Positions 14,086 to 27,833 of a stretch of DNA of 64,000 nucleotides are shown here, in pieces. How positions within the stretch are numbered: position 1 is the stretch's first letter; every line of letters begins with the position of its first letter. Below the pieces are notes generated by a model. That model saw only the letters and a program-made list of their open reading frames with translations, searched no databases and was not told where the DNA came from. Source of the stretch: an uncultured Ruminiclostridium sp. (lineage in GTDB: Bacteria; Bacillota; Clostridia; Oscillospirales; Ruminococcaceae); the NCBI GenBank assembly GCA_947630685.1, contig CANRII010000001.1, positions 199-64,198 on the forward strand. The letters are read 5' to 3'. The position numbers and the translations under genes were made by a program.

Positions 14086-14304
14086 TCAAATATACATAAA
14101 CGTACTTCTTCCTCCGGCGACATTTTCAAGCGCTTCATCGGAAAGCTCCGTGCCGGAACGCAGCGTATCGTACAGCTCTTTGGCCTTTTCCTCGGAAAGC
14201 TCAAAGCCGTCTTCCTTTGCCAAAGCTATAAGCTCCTCCGGCGAGTTTGCTTTGTTAAGCTTTTGCAAAAGCTCCTCTTTAGTCATAATAGTATGTTCAG
14301 CCAT
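14086..14304 (-). CDS. Nif11-like leader double-glycine precursor peptide P1
   Basis: Leader ends LSDEALENVAGG; core RSTFMYI. Confidence 0.85.
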   Translation of the reverse strand: MAEHTIMTKEELLQKLNKANSPEELIALAKEDGFELSEEKAKELYDTLRSGTELSDEALENVAGGRSTFMYI

Positions 14305-14354
14305 TTTCGCTTTCCTCCTTTAGATAGGTTTTTGAAGCAAAGGCGAAAAATCGA

Positions 14355-14651
14355 TCACCCTTCCGACCATAACGTTTCGGTGAAAAATTTATCGACTGCT
14401 TTAACGCCTTTTTCAATACCCTTTGCTATATCCTTCCAGAAATCAAGGCAGGAATATCCGCCCGCAACTCCTTCGAGCGCGTCGTCGGAAAGCTCGCCCT
14501 CGGCGTGCAGCGTATCGTACAGCTCTTTGGCCTTTTCCTCGGAAAGCTCAAAGCCGTCTTCCTTTGCCAAAGCTACAAGCTCCTCCGGCGAGTTTGCTTT
14601 GTTCAGCTTTTGCATAAACTCCTCTTTAGTCATAATAGTCTGTTCAGCCAT
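14355..14651 (-). CDS. Nif11-like leader precursor P2
   Basis: LSDDALEGVAGG; core YSCLDFWKDIAKGIEKGVKAVDKFFTETLWSEG. Confidence 0.88.
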   Translation of the reverse strand: MAEQTIMTKEEFMQKLNKANSPEELVALAKEDGFELSEEKAKELYDTLHAEGELSDDALEGVAGGYSCLDFWKDIAKGIEKGVKAVDKFFTETLWSEG

Positions 14652-14682
14652 TTTTTATTATCCTCTTCCGCTGTCTTAAAGC

Positions 14683-15078
14683 TCAAGACCAAGTGCGTTT
14701 GCAATCACCGCAGTAATATTTTTGGGTCTTCTCGCTATACGCTGTATTTTTGCGCGAATGGCAGTAGGGGCAGTCTATGCCCTGAGTAACGTCCCTGAAC
14801 GCTTCGGGTATCGTTTCGGTGAAAAATTTACCTATACTCTCAACGCCCTTTGCTATATCTTTCCAGAAATCAAGGCAGGAATATCCGCCCGCAACTCCCT
14901 CGAGCGCGTCGTCGGGAAGCTCGCCCTCGGCGTGCAGCGTATCATATAGTTTTTCGGAGTCTTCCACGGAAAGCTCGAAGCCGTCTTCCTTTGCCAAAGC
15001 TATAAGCTCCTCCGGCGAGTTTGCTTTGTTGAGCTTTTGCATAAACTCCTCTTTAGTCATAATAGTCTGTTCAGCCAT
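14683..15078 (-). CDS. Nif11-like leader precursor P3 (helix plus CxxC..CxxC core)
   Basis: Core YSCLDFWKDIAKG...CPYC-16aa-CGDC. Confidence 0.88.
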   Translation of the reverse strand: MAEQTIMTKEEFMQKLNKANSPEELIALAKEDGFELSVEDSEKLYDTLHAEGELPDDALEGVAGGYSCLDFWKDIAKGVESIGKFFTETIPEAFRDVTQGIDCPYCHSRKNTAYSEKTQKYYCGDCKRTWS

Positions 15079-15109
15079 TTTTGTTATCTCCTTTCAAAAT
15101 TGTCGGCAG

Positions 15110-15340
15110 TTAAACGAGAGTACGGAACGGACCTATACGGTCGCCGCCTCCTCCTCCGAGCCAGTATCCGCCCGCAACGCTTTCAAGCTGTTCATCGGTC
15201 AGCTCGCCGCCGCTCAGCTGCTCGAAAAGCTCTTTTGCCTTTTCGGGAGTCATTTCGATCCCGTTTTCCTTAGCAAGCGCGAGGATATCATCAGCGGATC
15301 TTACATCTTTCAGCTTTGCTAAAAATTCTTCCTTGTTCAT
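15110..15340 (-). CDS. Nif11-like leader precursor P4
   Basis: LTDEQLESVAGG; core YWLGGGGGDRIGPFRTLV. Confidence 0.88.
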   Translation of the reverse strand: MNKEEFLAKLKDVRSADDILALAKENGIEMTPEKAKELFEQLSGGELTDEQLESVAGGYWLGGGGGDRIGPFRTLV

Positions 15341-15386
15341 ATTTTCTCCTTTTACAACTAGCGATCTGATATTATCAGCGGACTTG

Positions 15387-15629
15387 TTAATAATTTATTA
15401 ATTTCACTCCGCTCATGCTCTCTATTATTTTAATTATCTCATCATCCATACTCCAGCCGCCGGCAACGTTTTGGAGCTGATCATCGGATAACTCGACCGA
15501 GTTTAATTTGCCGAAAAGCTCCTGTGCTTTGTCGGGAGCAATTTCAATGCCGTTTTCTTTGGCAAGAGCGATAATATCATCAGCGGACTTTGCACCTTTC
15601 AGCTTGGAAATAAATTCTTCCTTGTTCAT
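15387..15629 (-). CDS. Nif11-like leader precursor P5
   Basis: LSDDQLQNVAGG; core WSMDDEIIKIIESMSGVKLINY. Confidence 0.88.
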   Translation of the reverse strand: MNKEEFISKLKGAKSADDIIALAKENGIEIAPDKAQELFGKLNSVELSDDQLQNVAGGWSMDDEIIKIIESMSGVKLINY

Positions 15630-15774
15630 TTGTTTAAGCTCCTTTCAAGGGGGCAGATCAGAATAGTAGTTCCTTTATTCTCTTCTTTAATTTGTCCTTC
15701 AAATCCCCGCCTGCGACTTTGTCAAGTTCCTCGTCGGAAAGCTCGCAGTTTGAATTTATCTGATCAAACAGCTC
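15601..15774. repeat. 174-nt exact direct repeat (second copy 16330..16503)
   Basis: Spans the 3' half of P6/P9, the spacer and the first codons of the next precursor (P5/P8). Confidence 0.9.
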
Positions 15775-15882
15775 TTTTGCCTTTTCGGGGGTTAGCTCAA
15801 CACAGTTTTCCCTTGCAAGTACTAGAATATCGTCAGCAGATTTTGCTTCTTTTAGCTTGGCGATAAGTTCTTCATTGTTCAT
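15658..15882 (-). CDS. Nif11-like leader precursor P6
   Basis: LSDEELDKVAGG; core DLKDKLKKRIKELLF. Confidence 0.88.
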   Translation of the reverse strand: MNNEELIAKLKEAKSADDILVLARENCVELTPEKAKELFDQINSNCELSDEELDKVAGGDLKDKLKKRIKELLF

Positions 15883-15906
15883 GTGTTTGCCTCTTTCGTA
15901 AAAATT

Positions 15907-16132
15907 TTATTTTCCAAAAAGGCTACCGAACCACTCTTTGACTGTGTCAACTATGCCGCCCCCGGAAACAGTATCAAGCTGATCGTCGGATAACTCGACC
16001 GAGTTCATACTGTTGAAAATCTCTTGTGCCTTATCGGGGGGGTACGTCAACGCCGGCTTCTTTTGCCAACGCAATAATATCGTCGGCAGATTTTGCTGTT
16101 TTCAGATTTGCAATAAATTCTTCCTTAGTCAT
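15907..16132 (-). pseudogene. Nif11-like leader precursor P7, +1 frameshift in a C7 tract (absent from the ORF track)
   Basis: 226 nt from ATG to TAA. Removing one base from the run at 16036-16042 gives MTKEEFIANLK...LSDDQLDTVSGG-GIVDTVKEWFGSLFGK (74 aa); AAAGGAG RBS upstream. Confidence 0.85.
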
Positions 16133-16160
16133 GTCATTTGCTCCTTTAGCTTATCAATGA

Positions 16161-16358
16161 TCAATGGTATGTCCAGATGCTCATGCCGCCCGCAACGTTT
16201 TCTAACTGCTCATCGGAAAGCTCGCCGCCGCTTAGCTGCTCGAAAAGCTCTTCTGCCTTTTCGGGAGTCATTTCGATCCCGTTTTCCTTAGCAAGAGCGA
16301 GGATATCGTCAGCGGACTTTGCCAATTTAAGCTTGGAAATAAATTCTTCCTTGTTCAT
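16161..16358 (-). CDS. Nif11-like leader precursor P8
   Basis: LSDEQLENVAGG; core MSIWTYH. Confidence 0.88.
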   Translation of the reverse strand: MNKEEFISKLKLAKSADDILALAKENGIEMTPEKAEELFEQLSGGELSDEQLENVAGGMSIWTYH

Positions 16359-16386
16359 TTGTTTAAGCTCCTTTCAAGGGGGCAGA

Positions 16387-16611
16387 TCAGAATAGTAGTT
16401 CCTTTATTCTCTTCTTTAATTTGTCCTTCAAATCCCCGCCTGCGACTTTGTCAAGTTCCTCGTCGGAAAGCTCGCAGTTTGAATTTATCTGATCAAACAG
16501 CTCCTGTGCCTTTTCGGGAGCAATTTCAATGCCGCTTTCATTAGCAAGCGCGATAATATCGTCGGCGGATTTTACGCCTTTAAGCCTTGCTAAAAATTCT
16601 TCCTTGTTCAT
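16387..16611 (-). CDS. Nif11-like leader precursor P9
   Basis: Core DLKDKLKKRIKELLF, identical to P6, on a different leader N-half. Confidence 0.88.
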   Translation of the reverse strand: MNKEEFLARLKGVKSADDIIALANESGIEIAPEKAQELFDQINSNCELSDEELDKVAGGDLKDKLKKRIKELLF

Positions 16612-16646
16612 ATCATTTGCTCCTTTAGTTGATCAATGATCAATGA

Positions 16647-16844
16647 TCAATGGTATGTCCAGATGCTCATGCCGCCCGCGACGTTTTCCAGCTGCTCGTC
16701 GGAAAGCTCATTGCCGCTCATCTGCTCGAAAAGCTCTTTCGCCTTGTCGGGGGTCATCTCAACGCCGTTTTCCTTTGCAAGCGCTAGAATATCATCAGCG
16801 GATTTTGCATCTTTCAGCTTGGCTAAAAATTCTTCCTTGTTCAT
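16647..16844 (-). CDS. Nif11-like leader precursor P10
   Basis: Core MSIWTYH. Confidence 0.88.
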   Translation of the reverse strand: MNKEEFLAKLKDAKSADDILALAKENGVEMTPDKAKELFEQMSGNELSDEQLENVAGGMSIWTYH

Positions 16845-16872
16845 ATCATTTGCTCCTTTAGTTGATCAATGA

Positions 16873-17070
16873 TCAATGGTATGTCCAGATGCTCATGCCG
16901 CCCGCGACGTTTTCCAGCTGCTCGTCGGAAAGCTCATTGCCGCTCAGCTGCTCGAAAAGCTCTTTTGCCTTATCGGTAGTCATTTCTATCCCGTTTTCCT
17001 TAGCAAGCGCGATAATATCGTCAGCGGATTTTACGCCTTTCAGCTTGGCTAAAAAATCTTCCTTTTTCAT
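16873..17070 (-). CDS. Nif11-like leader precursor P11
   Basis: Start reassigned to MKKEDF (ATG 17070) by homology with its siblings; core MSIWTYH. Confidence 0.85.
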   Translation of the reverse strand: MKKEDFLAKLKGVKSADDIIALAKENGIEMTTDKAKELFEQLSGNELSDEQLENVAGGMSIWTYH

Positions 17071-17092
17071 AACATCAGCCTCATTTCGGATT

Positions 17093-17326
17093 TTAATCGT
17101 TATTGTTTGGAAACGGGATAATAAAGTCTTTTTCCCAAATAATGCGGCTGCCGCCGGCAACATTGTCAAGCTCGTCGTCGGACATTTCGCCGCTTGCGGT
17201 TATCCGCTCGAAAAGCTCCTTTGCCTTATCGGGAGTTATCTCTATCCCGTTTTCTTTAGCAAGCGCGATAATATCATCGACGGATTTTACGCCTTTCAGC
17301 TTGGCTAAAAAATCTTCCTTGTTCAT
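17093..17326 (-). CDS. Nif11-like leader precursor P12
   Basis: Start MNKEDF (ATG 17326) after AAAGGAG; core SRIIWEKDFIIPFPNNND. Confidence 0.85.
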   Translation of the reverse strand: MNKEDFLAKLKGVKSVDDIIALAKENGIEITPDKAKELFERITASGEMSDDELDNVAGGSRIIWEKDFIIPFPNNND

Positions 17327-17399
17327 GTTAAGCTCCTTTCGTAAGGTGGGTGGCATACGGGCGTCAGCCGAAAAGGCATCGTCCCGTATGCCTGAACTT

Positions 17400-17627
17400 T
17401 TAGTATTTATACACCGCGATCCATACGTCCGGACCTAAAAGATCGGCAAGGTCTTTTCTTCCGCCCGCAACATTGTCAAGCTCGTCGTCGGATAATTCGT
17501 TTATCTTGTCGAAAAGCTCCTTTGCCTTATCGGGAGCGATCTCTAAGCCGTTTTCTTTTGCAAGAGCGATAACGTCATCGACGGACTTTGCATTCGTCAG
17601 CTTTTTGATAAATTCTTCCTTGTTCAT
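17400..17627 (-). CDS. Nif11-like leader precursor P13
   Basis: LSDDELDNVAGG; core RKDLADLLGPDVWIAVYKY. Confidence 0.88.
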   Translation of the reverse strand: MNKEEFIKKLTNAKSVDDVIALAKENGLEIAPDKAKELFDKINELSDDELDNVAGGRKDLADLLGPDVWIAVYKY

Positions 17628-17655
17628 AAGTTTGACCCTCTCTTTTAATAAGTCG

Positions 17656-17901
17656 TTAAAGTTGGATCTTTATGATCTGTCCGTGACCCTCCGCATAACA
17701 GCAGTCTTCGCAGTTATAACCGCTGGTGCCGCCGGAACGGATATATACTATCCTCTTTGAACCGCAGTTCGGACAGCCGTTCGCCCAACTTTTTATATAT
17801 TCGGGAGAACCCTCTTTCGGAAGCGACGTGTCATTCGATCCGCCCGAAACGCTTTCAAGCTGGTCGTCGAGAAGCTCCGCGTTTTTATCTGATCTTTCCA
17901 T
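17656..17901 (-). CDS. Short-leader double-glycine precursor P14 (CxxC..CxxC core)
   Basis: 21-aa leader ending LLDDQLESVSGG; core contains CPNC-17aa-CEDC. Confidence 0.82.
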   Translation of the reverse strand: MERSDKNAELLDDQLESVSGGSNDTSLPKEGSPEYIKSWANGCPNCGSKRIVYIRSGGTSGYNCEDCCYAEGHGQIIKIQL

Positions 17902-17923
17902 AGTAATTCCTCCTTAAGCCGCT

Positions 17924-18286
17924 TTAATCCTTCTTAGTCATAGATGATACGGCTGCGCTCGTGGAAACTTGTGCTAAAGACTTTGTAAAGTCCGCGAAGC
18001 CCTCGAAATATTCGGGTATGTCCTTTGTGAAGAAGTCCTTTACATCCTCTGTAAAGAATTTATCTATAGACTTGAAAACGTCGGTGAGCCAGCTGCCGCC
18101 GGAAACGCCCTCAAGCTCATCGTCGGAAAGCTCGCCCTCAGCGTGCATGGAATCAAATAATTTCTGCGCGTTTTCCGGACTTAACTCCGCGTCGTACACC
18201 TTAGCAAACTCTATCAGCTCCTCCGGGGACTTCGCACTCATTAACTGAGCCTGAAATTCTTCCTTAGTGAATACTTGCTCTTCCAT
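17924..18286 (-). CDS. Nif11-like leader precursor P15
   Basis: LSDDELEGVSGG; core SWLTDVFKSIDKFFTEDVKDFFTKDIPEYF... Confidence 0.88.
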   Translation of the reverse strand: MEEQVFTKEEFQAQLMSAKSPEELIEFAKVYDAELSPENAQKLFDSMHAEGELSDDELEGVSGGSWLTDVFKSIDKFFTEDVKDFFTKDIPEYFEGFADFTKSLAQVSTSAAVSSMTKKD

Positions 18287-18328
18287 GGTGATTATCCTCC
18301 TTTATCGACCGTAAATTGGGGTCGTTTT

Positions 18329-18691
18329 TTACATTAAGCCTAAACCTTTTGCCGCCTCGCCCACTATGACTTTAGCGGTAGTTTCATACGCATCCGGTAA
18401 TGTTTCGGTAAAGAATTTGGGTACGTCCTTTGTGAAGAAGTCCTTTACATCCTCTGTAAAGAATTTATCTATAGACTTAAAAGCGTCGGTGAGCCAGCAG
18501 CCGCCGGAAACGCCCTCAAGCTGATCGTCGGAAAGCTCGCCCTCGACGTGCATAGAATCAAACAATTTCTGCGCGTTTTCCGGACTTAACTCCGCGTCGT
18601 ACACCTTAGCAAACTCTATCAGCTCCTCCGGGGACTTCGCACTCATTAACTGAGCCTGAAATTCTTCCTTAGTGAATACTTGCTCTTCCAT
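18329..18691 (-). CDS. Nif11-like leader precursor P16
   Basis: Core CWLTDAFKSIDKFFTEDVKDFFTKDVPKFFTETLPDA... Confidence 0.88.
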   Translation of the reverse strand: MEEQVFTKEEFQAQLMSAKSPEELIEFAKVYDAELSPENAQKLFDSMHVEGELSDDQLEGVSGGCWLTDAFKSIDKFFTEDVKDFFTKDVPKFFTETLPDAYETTAKVIVGEAAKGLGLM

Positions 18692-18733
18692 GGTGATTAT
18701 CCTCCTTTATCGACCGTAAATTGGGGTCGTTTT

Positions 18734-19099
18734 TTACATTAAGCCTAAACCTTTTGCCGCCTCGCCCACTATGACTTTAGCGGTAGTTTCATACGCATCC
18801 GGTAATGTTTCGGTAAAGAATTCGGGTACGTCCTTTGTGAAGAAGTCCTTTACATCTTTGGTAAAGAATTTATCTATAGACTTAAAAGCGTCGGTGAGCC
18901 AGCAGCCGCCGGACACGCCCTCAAGCTGATCGTCGGAAAGCTCTCCCTCGACGTGCATGGAATCAAACAATTTCTGCGCGTTTTCCGGGCTTAACTCCGC
19001 GTCGTACACCTTAGCGAACTCTATCAGCTCCTCCGGGGATTTTGCGCTCATTAACTTCTCCTGAAATTCTTCCCTGGTGAGTGTTCTTGCCTCTTCCAT
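18734..19099 (-). CDS. Nif11-like leader precursor P17
   Basis: Near-duplicate of P16 (2 core substitutions). Confidence 0.88.
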   Translation of the reverse strand: MEEARTLTREEFQEKLMSAKSPEELIEFAKVYDAELSPENAQKLFDSMHVEGELSDDQLEGVSGGCWLTDAFKSIDKFFTKDVKDFFTKDVPEFFTETLPDAYETTAKVIVGEAAKGLGLM

Positions 19100-19153
19100 G
19101 TGATTATCCTCCTTTATAGACCGTAAATTTTTATGGGGCGTTTTTGCCCAAAA

Positions 19154-19441
19154 TTATTCAAAAACGTGTCCGCAGAACTTACATACATAATGATACGCCT
19201 TTGTAGGAAAGCCCTTTGGTACAAGCCGGGAATCGGTCACCTGCTCTATCTCAATATCATATTTGCCGCAATACATACATCTTGACGGCTTTTCGGGAAT
19301 AGCGCTGAGCGGCGTGCTTGAATCAGAACCGTATATTACTTTTCCGAACGGCGTTTGCATTTCAAACCACATACCGCTGCCGCCCGACACCGTTTCAAGC
19401 TCTTCGTCGGAAAGCTCGTTCCTCTTTTCCTCTTTGCTCAT
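19154..19441 (-). CDS. Short-leader double-glycine precursor P18 (CxxC..CxxC core)
   Basis: 21-aa leader ending LSDEELETVSGG; core contains CMYC-28aa-CKFC. Confidence 0.82.
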   Translation of the reverse strand: MSKEEKRNELSDEELETVSGGSGMWFEMQTPFGKVIYGSDSSTPLSAIPEKPSRCMYCGKYDIEIEQVTDSRLVPKGFPTKAYHYVCKFCGHVFE

Positions 19442-19456
19442 AATTATCCCTTTCTA

Positions 19457-19846
19457 TTATGATTTTACAAGCTTGCCGCAGTGTTTGCACCTGATCTTTT
19501 GGACGCCGAATTGCCATTCTATCGTAAAGCCTTCGCGTGAACCGCACCACTGGCAATCAGCGCCGTAGAAAATATCTTTGAATTTGTCGCTTATTGCATC
19601 ACCTAATGATTCAAACGTTTCTTTCACGCTTTTTAAAAAGCTGCTTAAGCTTCCTCCCGCTACGCTTTCAAGCTCATCGTCGGAAAGCTCTCCCTCGGCG
19701 TGCAGAGCATCAAACAATTTCTGCGCGTCTTCCGGGCTCAGTTCGAGGTTGCATTCATTAGCGAACGCTATCAGATCCTCCGGAGACTTTGCTTTCTTTA
19801 ACAGCTCCTTTATTTCTTCATCGGTGATTTTTTTCGCTTCTTCCAT
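19457..19846 (-). CDS. Nif11-like leader precursor P19 (helix plus CxxC..CxxC core)
   Basis: Core SLSSFLKSVKETF...CQWC-18aa-CKHC. Confidence 0.88.
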   Translation of the reverse strand: MEEAKKITDEEIKELLKKAKSPEDLIAFANECNLELSPEDAQKLFDALHAEGELSDDELESVAGGSLSSFLKSVKETFESLGDAISDKFKDIFYGADCQWCGSREGFTIEWQFGVQKIRCKHCGKLVKS

Positions 19847-19946
19847 AGTAAATTATCCTCCTTTATCGACCGTAAATTTTTTGGGGTCGTTTTTGCTTGT
19901 TTTTTTGCCGTATCGGCGAAATTAAACCACTATCTGCCCGTAAATC

Positions 19947-20309
19947 TCAGTTTTTCTTGGTCTTTATCACATACTGGCAGTTGCCGCAAATGGTTTTTAT
20001 AACTCCCTTGTCGCTCTGCTGGTAGCTCTTGCGCGAACCGCACCTCGGGCAATCCGCACCTACAAACAGATCAGCTATTTTGTCGCCGAGATTCTTAAAG
20101 AAGTCTGTAAAAGCGTTTCCGCCCGCAACATCCTCAAGCTGCTCGTCGGCAAGCTCGCCCTCAGAATGAAGTGCGGCGAACATGGCCTTAGCGTCCTGCT
20201 CGCTTATGGTCACTCCGTTGCCATCCGCGATAGCGATAAGCTCGTCGGGAGACTTTGCCGCCTTGATCTTAGCAAGTATCTCCTCGTTGGTTATTGTTTT
20301 CTCTTCCAT
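19947..20309 (-). CDS. Nif11-like leader precursor P20 (helix plus CxxC..CxxC core)
   Basis: Core NAFTDFFKNLGDKIADLF...CPRC-17aa-CGNC. Confidence 0.88.
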   Translation of the reverse strand: MEEKTITNEEILAKIKAAKSPDELIAIADGNGVTISEQDAKAMFAALHSEGELADEQLEDVAGGNAFTDFFKNLGDKIADLFVGADCPRCGSRKSYQQSDKGVIKTICGNCQYVIKTKKN

Positions 20310-20364
20310 GTTTTTCCTCCTTTATAATATTTAACTGTTTATTTTTAATGCTTGAAACAGCATT

Positions 20365-20799
20365 TTAATGTAACCACGTATAGCCGCAGTTGCAGCATTT
20401 ATAGTTATACTGACCGCCCGCCTGGGCAGATACGCCAAGCTCTTCTTTAGTGTTTATTGAGCCGCAGCTGGGGCATTTTACATATTTTAGCAGCCTGTCT
20501 ATACCCTCGCCCGCTAGCTTAAACGCTTCCGGCACATCTTTCGTGAATACTTTTTCTACGGCTTTAGCCGCTTTTTTTATTCCCTCTCCTATGTCGCAGA
20601 AGATGCATCCGCCCGAAACCTCAGCAAGCTCATCGTCGGAAAGCTCGCCCATAGCCATCGCGCTTTCATACATCTTCTTTGCGGTCTCCTCACTTACGGT
20701 AACGCCGTTTTCTTTAGCAAGCGCCATTACCCCCTCGGGAGAACCCGCCTCTCTGAATTTTGCAAACAGTTCTTCTTGGCTTATAGTTTTTTCTTCCAT
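20365..20799 (-). CDS. Nif11-like leader precursor P21 (helix plus CxxC..CxxC core)
   Basis: Core CIFCDIGEGIKK...CPSC-22aa-CCNC (80 aa). Confidence 0.88.
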   Translation of the reverse strand: MEEKTISQEELFAKFREAGSPEGVMALAKENGVTVSEETAKKMYESAMAMGELSDDELAEVSGGCIFCDIGEGIKKAAKAVEKVFTKDVPEAFKLAGEGIDRLLKYVKCPSCGSINTKEELGVSAQAGGQYNYKCCNCGYTWLH

Positions 20800-20824: not shown

Positions 20825-22093
20825 TTACATCTTTAAGTTAGGACAAACAAGCGGCTCTTCGTCGTCCGCGGTCGCCTGTATGCCTACCTGTCTTAACTGC
20901 TCCGCAAAGCCGTCCGACAATGCGTTTCCCGCAAATTCCTGTAAAAACGTAATGCAGAAGTTGCCGCCCACGGCGTTTACTTCAAATAATACATGGCTCG
21001 CGGCAGGGTCTACATAGGTAAATATCGACTTTATATAAGGCTCTAACGCTCCGAGCCGCTGTATATGCACATAGCTTACCGTGAGGTCTACGAACACCTT
21101 GTTCATCTGCGACGATTTTTGAAACGCCTCATGCACCGCGTCGTAATCGCCGAGCGCTAATATCTTTTGTTCCTTTTGCAATCGGTTCTTCACCGCGTTC
21201 AGCATATATTCCTGTGAGGACTGGTGATCCATCATCTGACGGGTAACGCCGCACAGCTTATCCATCGGCATATTTCTCATCTGCTCGGTATAATTCAGCA
21301 CGATATTGCCCAGCACGTTGTTATGCGCTTTCGGAGCTTTTACCGCGTCGCGGTAGTTTTTCATAAGTATCGTTCTGAACGGGTGATTAAGCTTTTCGCA
21401 AAGGTCGAATACCGTTTTCGCCAAGAGATTGGACATCACTATCGCGGGAGTGCCGCCGTTTGCCTTGACGTACTCCATGAATTCGTCCTCCGGCACCGAC
21501 ATTCTGCGCGCCGTTTTACAAACGGGACAGCCGGGAAGTATCTCCTCCCATTGCACGGCGGGCTCGACAGCCTGCGGATTGTGCTTAGGAGCTTCTTCCT
21601 TTGCGGGCTCTATATCAAGATACGGGTCTTTTCGTTCCTCCTCGGTGACAGGATCGTCTAATGTTCTGATACCGTCCGCGGGAAAGCTCTTTTTATATTT
21701 TTCGGTTATGTAGTAATACAGCGTAGTTTTGATAAACTCCAGTATACCCGTTTCGTCGGTTATAGAATGTACTATATCAAAATATACCGTGCTGCCCTCA
21801 TAATTTACCGCAAGCGCGTGCTCGTTCGACTGCTCCGACAGCAGCAGTACCGGAGTTATCCCCTCGGTTATAACTATCTGCTTATCGTTAGGCAGTACCG
21901 AATGTAAAAGCTCGCCCTCTTCGCGGACAAATTTTACCGAATAGTAATCGTAACGCTTTATCGCAATATCCACCGCCTTGCGCAAAGCGGCGGGGTCTAT
22001 ATTTTCGTTAAGCTCCACCGCGGTTCTTACGGTGTGCTGTACGTTTTCGTCGGAACGGTAAAATCCCGATATCCCCGACGGATTGTTCTTCAT
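20825..22093 (-). CDS. CoA-dependent acyltransferase, condensation/CAT fold (alcohol acetyltransferase-like)
   Basis: IDPAALRKAVDIAIKRY N-terminal motif, HSITDETG (HxxxD catalytic motif), FIKTTLYYY, 422 aa. These resemble the clostridial AATase/condensation family. Confidence 0.7.
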   Translation of the reverse strand: MKNNPSGISGFYRSDENVQHTVRTAVELNENIDPAALRKAVDIAIKRYDYYSVKFVREEGELLHSVLPNDKQIVITEGITPVLLLSEQSNEHALAVNYEGSTVYFDIVHSITDETGILEFIKTTLYYYITEKYKKSFPADGIRTLDDPVTEEERKDPYLDIEPAKEEAPKHNPQAVEPAVQWEEILPGCPVCKTARRMSVPEDEFMEYVKANGGTPAIVMSNLLAKTVFDLCEKLNHPFRTILMKNYRDAVKAPKAHNNVLGNIVLNYTEQMRNMPMDKLCGVTRQMMDHQSSQEYMLNAVKNRLQKEQKILALGDYDAVHEAFQKSSQMNKVFVDLTVSYVHIQRLGALEPYIKSIFTYVDPAASHVLFEVNAVGGNFCITFLQEFAGNALSDGFAEQLRQVGIQATADDEEPLVCPNLKM

Positions 22094-22897: not shown

Positions 22898-25105
22898 TCA
22901 GCTGTTTACCGGCTCTTTGTCGTCAAGGCGCTGACGCGCTACCAGCTCGGCAAATTTTCCGTTTAAGGCTATAAGCTCGTCGTAAGTGCCCTCCTCGGCG
23001 ATCTTGCCCTTTTCAAGATATATTATCCTGTCGCATTGCTTTATGGTGGAAAGCCTGTGCGCTATCACTATCCTTGTGCATTTAAGGCTGTTCAGCGAAT
23101 CGGAAACGGTCTTTTGCGTGATGTTGTCCAGCGCGCTGGTCGCCTCGTCGAACATAAGTATCTTAGGCCTCGGCGCTATCGCTCTGGCTATCATAAGGCG
23201 CTGACGCTGACCGCCGGAAACGCCGCCGCTGCCCTCGGAGATGATAGTGTTCATTCCCATAGGCATTCTGCGTATGTCCTCCGCTATGCCGGAAAGCTCC
23301 GCCGCCTCCCACGCTTCGTCCATGGTGAGCCACGGCGCGGAAATGGTGATGTTAGAGAATATATCCCCCTGGAACAGCTTGCCGTTTTGCATTACCGTGC
23401 CTATACTGCGGCGCAATGATTTAAGGTCAAGGCTGGAAATATCCTTGCCGTCGTAGTATACCGAGCCTTTCTGCGGAGTTTCAAAGCCCAGCATTACTCT
23501 CATAAGCGTGGATTTACCGCAGCCAGTAGTGCCTACTATCGCGACATACTGACCCGGCCGTATCTTAAGCGACAGATCGTCAAGGACGTTGGGCATGCTG
23601 TCGCTGTAGCGGAACGAAATGTTGTTCAGCTCTATCCCGCCGGAAAGCCTTGTCACTACTTCCTTGCCCTCGGATATTTCGGGTGTAGCGTCAAGTATCG
23701 GCTTTGCCATATCCAATACCGGCTTGATATTCGCCGCGGTGAGCGCTATCCCCGCAAGGGACATGAACGCGCCGGACACCATGCCGTACGCGGTATTGAA
23801 CGCGTAGTAATCCGCTACCGACACGTTGCTTACCACCGCGAGATAATACATAACGAATGTTCCCGCAAGGCTTATAATAGTGGTAAATACCGAGTTGTAT
23901 CTTATTAAAGTCGGCGGGTCGTACAGCAGCTTAGCCTCTTTTGAGTACAGGCTGCCCCATTTGGCGAACGCGCGCCGCTCCGCACCGGACAGCTTTATCT
24001 TCTGGACGCCGGTTATCAGCGCATAATCAAGACCGCTGACCTTAGCGCCGTGCTCCATCTGCTGCTTTGATATTTTCATCTGAGCCAATGCGCTTATCAC
24101 CGAAAACAGCACCGTAACGATTATTATTATCAGCGCGGGAACCACCAGCGTCGGCGCAAACGCGAATATCTGCGCTATATACACCAGCGAGAACACCGAG
24201 GTAAGACCGGTAGAAAGCACCGTATCCACCAGCATGGAGCATATCATATTTATGTACTGCGTTCTTACCGACAGCTCGCCGGAGCTGTATTTTTTGAAAA
24301 ACGACGCGGGTAGTGACATGACGCGCGCCATGGTCGCCGCCTGCACGGTAACGTCCATTTTCGTGCGTATCCTCGCCATAATAAGCGATTTTATCGTGCT
24401 TATCATCAGTGTGGATATTGACAGGCATATCATAAACACCGCTATAGACATAAGCAGCGTAAGATCCTTGTTATCCACTACCAGACCGAAAAGCAGCTGA
24501 TTGAGCTTAGGCGTCAGCATACCTACAACGGTAGCGGCCAGCGTCACCGTTGCCGCTATCAGATAATCCGATACCGATAAGATACCGGCTATGTATTTTA
24601 GCAGGCTGCCTATACTTAACTTCTTTAGCGGGAACGGCTTGTAAAAGGCGACAGCGTCCTCCTCAAACAGCCCCTCGTTCTTTTTGGATATCTTGACGGT
24701 CTTACCGGTCGTGCGGTCGTAGTATGAATACCCCGACATACCGCTGGGTATCAATGCGGCAACGCTGCCGTCCGACTTCATCACCGCGAGCATAGCTCCG
24801 AACGCGTCCTTATACCACCCTTTTTCAAGGGTGACGTTTCTGCGCATGATACCGTGCGGCCGCATGAGATATTCAAGCTGCTCGTTGGTATCCTTTATCG
24901 TATCCGGTACGTCTTTTGATCTCGTTTTGATATGATAATAGCTTAGTATCTCGTCGATAGCGTCCTTAGCGCGGCTCTTATCGTCGGCGAACGCGTCGGA
25001 TATATGCGTTCCGGTCACCGCGTCGGATATGCTTATAAACGCCTCCTCGAAGGTGCTGAGGTCTTTTTCCTTTCGCTGTTTTATCTGTTCATCGAACCAA
25101 CCCAT
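22898..25105 (-). CDS. NHLM/NHLP bacteriocin export ABC transporter, permease/ATPase subunit (TIGR03797-like)
   Basis: Degenerate peptidase-like N-domain without catalytic Cys, ABC membrane domain, GTTGCGKS Walker A, VSGGQRQR, FDEATSALD. Confidence 0.9.
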   Translation of the reverse strand: MGWFDEQIKQRKEKDLSTFEEAFISISDAVTGTHISDAFADDKSRAKDAIDEILSYYHIKTRSKDVPDTIKDTNEQLEYLMRPHGIMRRNVTLEKGWYKDAFGAMLAVMKSDGSVAALIPSGMSGYSYYDRTTGKTVKISKKNEGLFEEDAVAFYKPFPLKKLSIGSLLKYIAGILSVSDYLIAATVTLAATVVGMLTPKLNQLLFGLVVDNKDLTLLMSIAVFMICLSISTLMISTIKSLIMARIRTKMDVTVQAATMARVMSLPASFFKKYSSGELSVRTQYINMICSMLVDTVLSTGLTSVFSLVYIAQIFAFAPTLVVPALIIIIVTVLFSVISALAQMKISKQQMEHGAKVSGLDYALITGVQKIKLSGAERRAFAKWGSLYSKEAKLLYDPPTLIRYNSVFTTIISLAGTFVMYYLAVVSNVSVADYYAFNTAYGMVSGAFMSLAGIALTAANIKPVLDMAKPILDATPEISEGKEVVTRLSGGIELNNISFRYSDSMPNVLDDLSLKIRPGQYVAIVGTTGCGKSTLMRVMLGFETPQKGSVYYDGKDISSLDLKSLRRSIGTVMQNGKLFQGDIFSNITISAPWLTMDEAWEAAELSGIAEDIRRMPMGMNTIISEGSGGVSGGQRQRLMIARAIAPRPKILMFDEATSALDNITQKTVSDSLNSLKCTRIVIAHRLSTIKQCDRIIYLEKGKIAEEGTYDELIALNGKFAELVARQRLDDKEPVNS

Positions 25106-25117
25106 ACAAACACCCCC

Positions 25118-27310
25118 TTATTCATTGGAAACGAGCCTGGTATAAAGCCCGTTCGCGGCGTACAGCTCTTCATGCGTGCCGCGTTCAACGACTTTTCCAT
25201 TATCCAAAACGATTATCTCGTCGCAGTCGCGTATGGTGGAAAGTCTGTGTGCGACGACTATGCAGGTTATTCCCCTGTCCTTTATGGAGCGTACCACGTC
25301 GTACTCGGTCTTTGCGTCCAGCGCGCTGGTCGCCTCGTCCAGGATTATTATAGTGGGATCCTGGGCGAGCACGCGGGCTATCTCCATTCTCTGACGCTGA
25401 CCGCCGGAGAAGTCCTTGCCGTTTTCGGTAATGACGTAATCATATCCGCCGTCGCGCTGCATTATGTCGGAATGTATCTGCGCGTCCTTTGCGGCGAGTA
25501 TCATTTCAAAATCTTCAATGGAGCTGTCCCACATCTTTATATTGTTTCTTATAGAGTCCTCAAACAGGATTATATCCTGATCCACTACCGCCAAAGAGCC
25601 GGTAAACACGCTGCGGTCGATATCCTTTATCGGCTTGCCGTCAAAAAGTATCTCGCCGCTCCACGGCTGATACAGTCCGGAGATGAGCTTTGAAAGGGTG
25701 GATTTTCCACAGCCGGAGCCTCCCACGAAAGCAACGCGGCTGCCCGGCTTTAGGGTAAGGCTGAAATCCTCTATCAGCGGATCGTCAAGACGTGAATAGC
25801 CGAACGTAACGTTCTTTAATTCCACGGTGCCGCTTAGCTTGCTGTACTCCGCGTCGTCGGAGGCGGTATCGTCGTCCCTGTAGTTTACGTCGGTGGGATA
25901 TTCCATAACGTCCTCGATACGCTCCATCTGGGTGCGCATCTCCTGTATGGTCTGACTTGCCGAGATAAGCGTCATGGCAGGCTCGGTAAAGGACGCTAAA
26001 AATCCCTGGAACGCCATTACCATACCTACGGTGAAATTGCCCTGTATAGTAAACAGCACGCCGAGTATCAGCACTATTGTATTGGTAAGCTGAGAAACAA
26101 GTCCCGGCACCATGCCGAGGTATTCGTTCAGCCTTTCGTATCTTACCTGCTGGGTGTTCACGCTCGCCTGATAGCCCGACCATTTTTCAAAATAGCCGTT
26201 CTCCGCGCCGCTGGACTTGATAGTTTCTATCATCTCTATACCCGCGACCGTCGCGCCTGCGAGCTTGCCCTCGTCGCGCATCTGGATACGGGTGATATTG
26301 ACGCGCTTTTTAGAGATTATCTGCGACATTATAAGATTGAGCAATATAGAAGCCACACCGACTATCGTCAATATCCAGCTGTAGCGTATCATTACCACGA
26401 GATAGAATATCATCATCGCCGTATTCAGCACCAGCGGCGCAAAGGTATTTACAAGGCTGCTCGCTATGCCGGAATTAGTGCTTTGCCTTTGCTGGATATC
26501 CCCCGCCATTCGCTGGGAGAAAAACTCCATCGGCATGCGCAGTATCTTCCATAAAAACGACGTATCGCCCACTACCGCTAATTTTCCCTCTATCATTCGG
26601 TTGGATTTTGCGGTGACGTATGCGACGACGATCTGCGCCAGCGAAAATACCGCTAACAGCGCAAGGAACGGATAGAACCATTCTATATCCGTATGCGTCA
26701 AAAGTCTATCCAGAAATACCCGTGAAAACGCGGGCTGTATAATGCCGAGCAGCGACGTTATTATCGTAGTGATAACAGTAAACGCGATGGCTACTCCCGC
26801 GCCTATAAGGCGTTTTCTCGCAAAGGACATCACGCTTTTCGGCTTTCCGCCCGGCTCGAAATTCTCGGTCGGCTCGAACATCAGGCAGATACCGGTAAAG
26901 CTCTTATCAAAGGTTTCCATAGAAACGGTATAATTGCCTTTTGCCGGATCGTTAAGCACGGCTTTATCGCCCTTAAAGCCGCAAAGCACCACAAAGTGAT
27001 TGAAATTCCAATGGACTATGCAGGGGAATTTTCCTTTTTCCTTGAGCTGCTCCGGCTCGTAGCGGTAGCCCTTTGCCGTCATTCCGTAGCTGCGGGCGGC
27101 CTTAAGTACGTTCTTAGCGCTGGAGCCGTCGCGGGACACGCCGCAGTCCGCGCGCACCTGCTCGAGCGGTATCCATTTTCCGTAATAGGCAAGGATCATG
27201 GTAAGCGCCGCCGCTCCGCATTCGAGCGCCTCCATCTGCATTACCACAGGCACCTTTGCCCAGCCTTTCGTTACCGGCGTATGCTGCTTTTTATCGAACA
27301 TCATGCGCAC
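25118..27310 (-). CDS. NHLM/NHLP bacteriocin export ABC transporter, C39 peptidase/permease/ATPase (TIGR03796-like)
   Basis: QMEALECGAA (Cys), HWNFNHF (His), NDPA (Asp), GGSGCGKS, FSGGQRQR. The start may be ATG 27304 or 27301. Confidence 0.93.
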   Translation of the reverse strand: MRMMFDKKQHTPVTKGWAKVPVVMQMEALECGAAALTMILAYYGKWIPLEQVRADCGVSRDGSSAKNVLKAARSYGMTAKGYRYEPEQLKEKGKFPCIVHWNFNHFVVLCGFKGDKAVLNDPAKGNYTVSMETFDKSFTGICLMFEPTENFEPGGKPKSVMSFARKRLIGAGVAIAFTVITTIITSLLGIIQPAFSRVFLDRLLTHTDIEWFYPFLALLAVFSLAQIVVAYVTAKSNRMIEGKLAVVGDTSFLWKILRMPMEFFSQRMAGDIQQRQSTNSGIASSLVNTFAPLVLNTAMMIFYLVVMIRYSWILTIVGVASILLNLIMSQIISKKRVNITRIQMRDEGKLAGATVAGIEMIETIKSSGAENGYFEKWSGYQASVNTQQVRYERLNEYLGMVPGLVSQLTNTIVLILGVLFTIQGNFTVGMVMAFQGFLASFTEPAMTLISASQTIQEMRTQMERIEDVMEYPTDVNYRDDDTASDDAEYSKLSGTVELKNVTFGYSRLDDPLIEDFSLTLKPGSRVAFVGGSGCGKSTLSKLISGLYQPWSGEILFDGKPIKDIDRSVFTGSLAVVDQDIILFEDSIRNNIKMWDSSIEDFEMILAAKDAQIHSDIMQRDGGYDYVITENGKDFSGGQRQRMEIARVLAQDPTIIILDEATSALDAKTEYDVVRSIKDRGITCIVVAHRLSTIRDCDEIIVLDNGKVVERGTHEELYAANGLYTRLVSNE

Positions 27311-27311
27311 C

Positions 27312-27833
27312 TCAATTAAACAAGAACATTATCGGAGAAATACTGTCGGTTATTATCTCCGCCTTATATGTGCCGCTGGGAAAAGAAGCGCCCAGCTTTA
27401 TCGGGTATACCCATTCGCCCTCCATAAGGTCAAAAGCGTGCATGGTATACTCGTTGAACGTGTTTTTATCCACCGTGATAGGCTCCTCGGAGATCTCCTC
27501 TATCGGGTATTCCTTGTTGTCTATCCTTACGGGATCGTCAAGAGATACCCGTTCTATATCCCCCTCTTTGACAAAACAGAACGCTATCTCGTCCATACCC
27601 GCTTCCTGCGCCTGCGGTACGAGGTCTTGGAGCCCTTGCACCGACAAAACGACGCATTCGACCTTGGTCTCTATCTTGCCTACCGCGCCCCATACGATAA
27701 ATCCTATCAGCAGGAGTATCACCGCGCCCAGCGTCAGCCAGATACCGGGACTGGTCACCCGTATGTAGTCGTTGAGCTGCTCCGGAGAGGAGACGCGCTC
27801 TATGCTCTTTTCTCTGAAAATATTGTTTGCCAT
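27312..27833 (-). CDS. NHLP bacteriocin system secretion accessory protein (short form, TIGR03794-like N-terminus)
   Basis: IFREKSIERVSSPEQLNDYIRVTSP followed by one TM helix. Confidence 0.85.
   Translation of the reverse strand: MANNIFREKSIERVSSPEQLNDYIRVTSPGIWLTLGAVILLLIGFIVWGAVGKIETKVECVVLSVQGLQDLVPQAQEAGMDEIAFCFVKEGDIERVSLDDPVRIDNKEYPIEEISEEPITVDKNTFNEYTMHAFDLMEGEWVYPIKLGASFPSGTYKAEIITDSISPIMFLFN

Follow-up and report, generated by a model that had tools for sequence, protein, structure and literature searches.

The cargo known from double-glycine and Nif11 export systems consists of short modified peptides and of linear bacteriocins. The window, the whole 64,000-nucleotide stretch of DNA analysed here (from an uncultured Ruminiclostridium sp., contig CANRII010000001.1), encodes 21 such precursors, P1 to P21, beside a peptidase-containing exporter. 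Judged from its genes, this appears to be an N11P/NHLP-type export system with a new type of cargo and no tailoring enzyme in the genome; it resembles an unmodified class II bacteriocin system with an unusual four-cysteine (Cys4) beta domain. Six of the precursors (P3, P14, P18, P19, P20, and P21) end in paired CxxC motifs. The favoured explanation, given about an even chance, is that these six become exported, unmodified, metal-clasped mini-proteins, probably akin to bacteriocins. If true, a folded metal-binding domain as cargo would widen the known range of double-glycine and Nif11 exporters, and this would be one of few zinc ribbons to be secreted. The fold normally belongs to the cytoplasm, and literature searches turned up no account of double-glycine or Nif11 leaders with zinc-ribbon cargo.

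Paired cysteine knuckles behind secretion leaders

The original prediction, made from the letters of the DNA, described six precursors with paired CxxC motifs spaced by 16 (P3), 17 (P14), 28 (P18), 18 (P19), 17 (P20), and 22 (P21) residues. The open reading frames (ORFs) and a recount of the CxxC-Xn-CxxC spacers agree. The first knuckles, described as mostly of the CxxCGS type, are so in four of six: CPNCGS (P14), CQWCGS (P19), CPRCGS (P20), and CPSCGS (P21), with CPYCHS in P3 and CMYCGK in P18. Each of the six ORFs is preceded by an AGGAGG-type ribosome-binding site. The pattern C..C-x8-40-C..C occurs in 6 of the 18 unique array cores, far above chance: in 2000 residue shuffles of the same cores, the number of matching cores averaged 0.05 and never exceeded 2. 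Cysteines beyond the four bring the totals to 5 in P3, 5 in P14, and 7 in P21. In P21 the extra ones include a third CxxC (CIFC) at core residues 1-4, immediately past the GG site; a cysteine within the first three core residues is found also in P2, P3, P16, and P17.

The knuckle signatures, sub-threshold family matches, and the P20 model with its structural matches agree with the claim that the cargo is zinc-ribbon-like. The AlphaFold (AF2) model of the P20 core has a mean predicted local distance difference test score (pLDDT) of 70, rising to 78-86 in the ribbon part, with strands at residues 31-36, 39-44, and 50-55. A Foldseek search of the PDB with this model returned the Brf ribbon 9k2g_V as best match (target TM-score, TMt, 0.79; root-mean-square deviation 1.1 Å; 32 columns), followed by aIF2-beta, eL43, and ZifS. 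Sub-threshold family matches are nearly all to zinc ribbons (TFIIB, IS1595, PaaD, TFIIS, FmdB, and RpoP); P14 has such matches, and P21 has weak ones to ribbons of the TFS/TFIIS type. The best sub-threshold hits of a PDB sequence search were Tim15 and RPB9 (CPKCHSRENV). The AF2 model of P18 (pLDDT 77; core 75-91) predicts a beta-rich domain, and a relative has CPMCG as its first knuckle. On this evidence, the ribbon fold assignment is good for the P3/P19/P20 family; the motifs make it plausible for P14 and P21; and for P18, with its motif and beta-rich model but without a credible structural match, the assignment is uncertain. Thus structure prediction with Foldseek, suggested at the outset as a check, matched the P20 core to zinc ribbons and gave nothing credible for P18.

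Export of the cores is supported by their context, as originally proposed. All six leaders end in V[AS]GG, preceded by ELxDxxLxx (that is, E-L-x-D-x-x-L-x-x-V-[AS]-G-G); these ends fit the C39 recognition motif, and the two exporter genes score above the TIGR03796 and TIGR03797 cut-offs. P3, P19, P20, and P21 have Nif11-type leaders of 64-65 residues, and P14 and P18 have double-glycine leaders of 21 residues. Relative to the TIGR03798 cut-off of 32.3 bits, P3 (42.0) and P20 (37.6) lie above and P19 (30.2) and P21 (25.0) below; P14 and P18 are unmatched. All Nif11-leader matches in the 2.25-Mb genome fall inside the array. A syntenic locus, L001, shares 95% nucleotide identity and retains P14, P18, P19, P20, and P21 with all of their cysteines; it is without P3. 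Between the two loci, the ratio of nonsynonymous to synonymous substitution rates (dN/dS) is 0.07 for the leader, about 1 for the pre-ribbon part, and 0.46 for the ribbon, values that rest on few substitutions. The leader ends appear to be under strong purifying selection.

These features suggest the following pathway. The last 13 or so leader residues would dock on the C39 domain, which is intact (PF03412) in the exporter expected to cleave after GG and to export the cores. LahT150 requires merely the last 13 leader residues (PMC6363468), so the short leaders of P14 and P18 should also be competent. The 56-80-residue core would then pass through the large transmembrane cavity of the transporter; in PCAT1, this cavity accommodates the whole cargo peptide (PMC8794836). 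Before or after export, the carboxyl-terminal module would fold into a zinc ribbon of three strands, with a single metal ion, most probably Zn2+, bound by its four cysteines. In the anoxic gut disulfides would be unreliable, and the clasped ribbon would provide a knob that is compact and stable. In P3, P19, P20, and P21, within-array recombination may have joined this knob to an amino-terminal amphipathic helix of the type that makes up the entire core of neighbouring peptides. Interbacterial antagonism is the likely role, although this is the weakest step: the helix would be the membrane-active part, and the ribbon would serve stability or target recognition.

Metal clasp, cross-link or disulfide

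Thioethers or thiazoles made on the cysteines by a trans-acting enzyme were among the outcomes that the original prediction had set against itself. The assembly is 96.7% complete, with about 3% unassembled, and it contains no LanC, YcaO, or array-type radical-SAM enzyme. The genome search for LanM and LanC gave at best a LANC_like score of 16.7 bits, below the cut-off of 23.2, and that for YcaO gave no match. Searching it by tblastn with four members of the array-linked radical-SAM family found a weak SPASM match only; a profile of 28 members, which scores 392-860 bits on the family itself, reached at best 64.8 in this genome, on a SCIFF maturase. That maturase, the sole SPASM enzyme in the assembly, belongs to a SCIFF system on contig C89 (L084:1447-3022), in which a 47-aa peptide with six cysteines adjoins the TIGR03974 maturase (719 bits). 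These results were taken to reject, for this genome, a lanthipeptide, thiazole/oxazole-modified microcin (TOMM), or radical-SAM reading. Since the genome offers no modifying enzyme for the cysteines of the six cores, export of small metal-clasped proteins becomes probable.

Sister loci of the same exporter family present a different picture, which the original prediction had overlooked. Directly after the array, 30 of 81 related loci have a gene for a 465-aa radical-SAM/SPASM protein (for example L024:13207-14604, L049:12731-14128 of Sporofaciens musculi, and L061:15725-17188). This family has an amino-terminal extension of about 90 aa and matched no curated NCBIfam model, the best sub-threshold scores being for ScmE, AhbD, and NirJ. 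Its presence goes with the type of cargo: cores starting with GC (or [ATS]C) make up 96 of 121 in loci with the gene versus 29 of 145 in loci without (Fisher p 4.5e-23), and cores with at least four cysteines make up 100 of 121 versus 52 of 145 (Fisher p 4.8e-15). The GC-start cores are likely to receive radical-SAM thioether cross-links; ranthionine links are found on cysteine-rich small proteins that adjoin such enzymes (PMC13692751). Because of this association, the CxxC-pair pattern is by itself no proof of a metal site.

The same chemistry might reach the six cores studied here, if the SCIFF maturase, or a radical-SAM gene in the unassembled portion, acted in trans to form thioethers (sactionine or ranthionine). 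The sister loci and the ranthionine precedent speak for this, as does the paralogy between the SCIFF maturase and a Nif11-peptide maturase family. However, the SCIFF maturase lies far below the scores of the array-linked family and sits beside its own peptide; the locus is complete, bounded on both sides by unrelated genes, with no such gene; and none of the six cores has the GC start that marks the enzyme-linked class. Moreover, among the genomes behind 13 loci, the enzyme profile found its target in both positive controls and in the L004 and L075 genomes, and not in nine ribbon-core genomes (L017, L018, L026, L030, L031, L032, L035, L079, and L082). These absences, from its own genome and from nine others, weaken the thioether explanation, which is rated improbable; they also point to an enzyme-free ribbon class in at least ten genomes. 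Set side by side, GC-start cores with radical-SAM enzymes and ribbon cores without would allow a clean test of the means by which anaerobes stabilise the peptides that they secrete.

Alternatively, the cores could be exported unmodified and the four cysteines form two extracellular disulfides, as in the disulfide-braced class II bacteriocins and glycocins. Secreted cysteine-containing bacteriocins are usually disulfide-bonded, the leader and exporter context is equally fitting, and the CxxC pairs lie close together in the P20 model. Yet a search of the genome for extracytoplasmic thiol-disulfide oxidoreductases matched no DsbA-like (Thioredoxin_4), DsbB, or VKOR protein; the host is a gut anaerobe in a reducing habitat; and CPxCG-type knuckles in a ribbon fold are typical of metal sites. 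The missing oxidoreductases, anoxic habitat, and knuckle type together favour a metal site, as far as sequence can tell, and disulfides are considered unlikely.

Other alternatives concern function and location. The products might be exported and yet not be toxins, serving instead to scavenge zinc or to signal to the LytTR/kinase and ECF-sigma circuits nearby. Tight zinc binding would be expected of a Cys4 site, regulators flank the array, no immunity gene lies within it, and the core charges are near neutral. This proposal too is improbable, since no core-specific uptake system or receptor was found nearby, since antagonistic peptides are typically encoded in arrays of many copies, with hypervariable cores on conserved leaders, and since cores of 56-80 residues are large for pheromones. 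It is very improbable that the six are not exported at all and are small cytoplasmic proteins with a leftover leader-like amino terminus. Such a location would be normal for zinc ribbons, and folded cargo might hinder export; but the leader ends bear the mark of strong purifying selection (dN/dS 0.07), every Nif11-leader match in the genome sits in a single array behind an exporter, and dozens of exporter loci share this architecture.

Several results nevertheless weigh against exported metal-clasped mini-proteins. Some concern the fold: the helix part of the P20 model is of low confidence; the Foldseek E-values for P20 are weak (0.07-1), which a domain length of about 30 residues would lead one to expect; the P18 model has no credible Foldseek match in the PDB; and no core exceeds the threshold of a curated zinc-ribbon family (best Pfam/NCBIfam scores 15-19 bits versus cut-offs of 21-34). 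The ribbon dN/dS of 0.46 is based on very few substitutions. Others concern function: net core charges of 0 to +5 are low for membrane-active bacteriocins, and the array, which consists of precursor genes only, includes no cognate immunity gene, which counts against a toxin role. Finally, cysteine-rich cores, some with ribbon-like CxxC pairs, lie beside the radical-SAM/SPASM gene in the 30 sister loci.

A broader proposal is more tentative, and on balance doubtful. It holds that gut anaerobes export a Cys4 zinc ribbon as the anoxic counterpart of the disulfide brace. Cysteine-rich cargo would then be stiffened in two parallel ways within a single exporter family: by radical-SAM staples where cores have a GC start, and by a metal clasp, needing no enzyme, in secreted metallo-mini-proteins such as these. 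Recombination would have attached the clasp to amphipathic helices, giving rise to new two-domain effectors. The cores are small, probably stable scaffolds from gut bacteria, of potential interest as antimicrobial leads.

Modular cores, their distribution, and known systems

Modular construction, another part of the original prediction, is borne out by the P3/P19/P20 alignment, by the mosaic character of P3, and by a recurrent sequence unit. P3, P19, and P20 can be aligned along the entire core (F.K....LG....D.F.D.F.G.DCP.CGSR...K..C..C); they thus constitute a single homologous helix-plus-ribbon family, confined to this lineage. The DNA of P2 and P3 is nearly identical through the leader and helix as far as FFTET, whereupon P2 stops and P3 enters the cysteine module, just as had been described. 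The PEAF...GID joint that follows FFTET in P3 is present also in P21. At the DNA level, then, P3 reads as a mosaic of P2 and a P21-like tail. The unit FFT[EK][DT] recurs in P2, P3, P15, P16, and P21. An amphipathic helix precedes the ribbon in P3, P19, P20, and P21 (18-residue hydrophobic moment 0.59-0.69), so the prediction of ribbons behind helices stands for these four; P14 and P18 have no helix. P2 (helix only) and P3 (helix plus ribbon) offer a natural experiment on what the ribbon contributes.

Relatives of the six modules are scarce. Word-indexed searches returned near-identical copies only, whether the query was the P20 core, P18, or the P21 core (for P21, in 5.8 billion proteins), and no paralog came up when the six modules were run by tblastn against the genome of the organism itself and 83 related loci. 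When 1.84 billion representatives were searched exhaustively with a profile, only the P19 and P20 clusters were recovered, plus weak matches to multi-ribbon repeat proteins; no donor of the helix-plus-ribbon family can be traced.

As a type, cysteine-rich cargo is frequent among exporters of this family. The sample comprised the window and the 83 loci, retrieved via the second ATP-binding cassette (ABC) gene, from gut Clostridia metagenome-assembled genomes (rabbit, mouse, and human) and from Sporofaciens musculi. It holds 279 double-glycine precursors, of which 98, across 44 loci, contain CxxC...CxxC. One locus (L079:9092-10833) encodes six ribbon cores on 25-aa double-glycine leaders, some of them tandem double ribbons, in a genome without the array-type radical-SAM enzyme. 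Cores of about 70 residues with 8-10 cysteines behind Nif11 leaders form large recurrent families in L021, L027, L061, L073, and other loci, with no curated match; examples are GCHxxDGRLVVT..C..W.CK.CG...C..C.Y.SYEKGLWLCNHP.N.K and GCYxxDGxLxTTIGYKCKYFE...GTCCxCKYWD.

N11P precursors (TIGR03798), such as prochlorosin ProcA and LahA1-9 of Lachnospiraceae C6A11 (PMC6363468), are alike in several respects: their leaders, too, are long, helical, and of the Nif11 type, with ELSDxxLxxVAGG at the end; paralogous precursors are numerous, conserved in the leader and hypervariable in the core; and the exporter pair lies above the family cut-offs. They differ in their maturation and products. In the present system, LanM, YcaO, and array-type radical-SAM enzymes are missing from locus and genome alike, and the cores are mini-proteins of 56-80 residues with a zinc-ribbon-like module rather than short peptides rich in Cys, Ser, and Thr. 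In addition, P14 and P18 have 21-residue leaders, and the 173-aa HlyD-like partner is unmatched by TIGR03794.

Class II bacteriocins, in particular the two-domain pediocin-like class IIa, share the double-glycine leader, the C39 ABC exporter, and the lack of a modification enzyme, as well as, going by the predicted structure, a small cysteine-braced beta-sheet domain joined to an amphipathic helix. Here the order is reversed, with the helix first and the sheet last; a Cys4 knuckle pair stands in place of a single disulfide; and there is neither a YGNGV box nor an immunity gene.

Classical zinc ribbons (TFIIB/Brf, TFIIS/RPB9, aIF2-beta, eL43, and FmdB) likewise have two CxxC knuckles, often CPxCG, with an aromatic residue before the second; the three-stranded sheet is present in the model, and these proteins provide the best structural and the weak sequence matches. 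They are cytoplasmic, whereas the modules described here lie behind a secretion leader, match below threshold, and have no genomic paralog. Finally, the radical-SAM cysteine-rich peptides (ruminococcin C; the ranthipeptides/SCIFF; and CrpA and CrpC of Methanococcus voltae, PMC13692751) also carry paired cysteine motifs in small products, and a radical-SAM/SPASM gene lies beside cysteine-rich cores in sister loci of this exporter family. The array-linked enzyme family is absent here, however, and the cores are without a GC start.

Gene train and smaller features

The genes lie on the minus strand from 27833 to 14086 and form a single train, in which the precursor array is operon-like. In order, they encode a 173-aa protein with a HlyD-like amino terminus; the C39-plus-ABC exporter; a second ABC protein; a 62-aa ORF; an ECF-type sigma factor; a 422-aa protein; and the 21 precursors from P21 to P1. 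Coordinates are listed in Table 1.

Table 1. Export genes and selected precursor genes of the train, with window coordinates
Feature	Position	Strand	Description
173-aa accessory protein, HlyD-like amino terminus	27312..27833	-	Conserved: 68 of 83 loci have it next to the exporter
Peptidase-containing ABC exporter (C39 domain + ABC)	25118..27310	-	PF03412 2e-36; TIGR03796 947 bits (cut-off 853)
Second ABC permease/ATPase subunit, without peptidase domain	22898..25105	-	TIGR03797 722 bits (cut-off 709)
422-aa gene between sigma factor and array	20825-22093	-	HxxxD-like VHSITDETG motif; predicted acyltransferase fold; no family match
Precursor array, 21 genes (P1-P21)	14086..20799	-	AGGAGG-type ribosome-binding site before each; P7 frameshifted
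P21 precursor	20365..20799	-	Nif11-type leader; 80-aa core: CIFC at +1, helix with VFTKDVPEAF, CPSC-x22-CCNC
P20 precursor	19947..20309	-	Nif11-type leader; 56-aa core: helix + CPRC-x17-CGNC
P19 precursor	19457..19846	-	Nif11-type leader; 64-aa core: helix + CQWC-x18-CKHC
P18 precursor	19154..19441	-	21-aa double-glycine leader; 74-aa beta-rich core, CMYC-x28-CKFC, no helix
P14 precursor	17656..17901	-	21-aa double-glycine leader; 60-aa core, CPNC-x17-CEDC(C), no helix
P3 precursor	14683..15078	-	65-aa Nif11-type leader ending GVAGG; 66-aa core: amphipathic helix, FFTETIPEAF joint, CPYC-x16-CGDC
P2, helix-only sibling of P3	14355..14651	-	Leader and helix as in P3; ends after FFTETLWSEG

The cassette TIGR03794/03796/03797 was tied to NHLP/Nif11 precursors by Haft, Basu and Mitchell 2010 (PMC2887384). 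Two of its three parts, TIGR03796 and TIGR03797, are confirmed next to the array; the TIGR03794 part is not, and the 173-aa HlyD-like protein matched neither that model nor any other curated family. LytTR/kinase and ECF-sigma circuits lie adjacent to the array, flanking it with regulators. A scan for promoters and terminators revealed nothing exceeding chance.

The 422-aa gene was considered as a ribbon-specific partner and rejected: homologs are present in just 7 of 83 loci, and the arrays there encode low-cysteine helical cores, except in the near-identical L001-L003 copies.

Other members of the array depart from the usual precursor form. The P7 gene (15907-16132, minus strand) is frameshifted, leaving its leader and its GIVDTVKEWFGSLFGK core in different frames. 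The heptapeptide core MSIWTYH occurs in three precursors and DLKDKLKKRIKELLF in two (16161-17070, 15658-15882, and 16387-16611, all on the minus strand). With cores this short on leaders of full length, signals seem likelier products than toxins.

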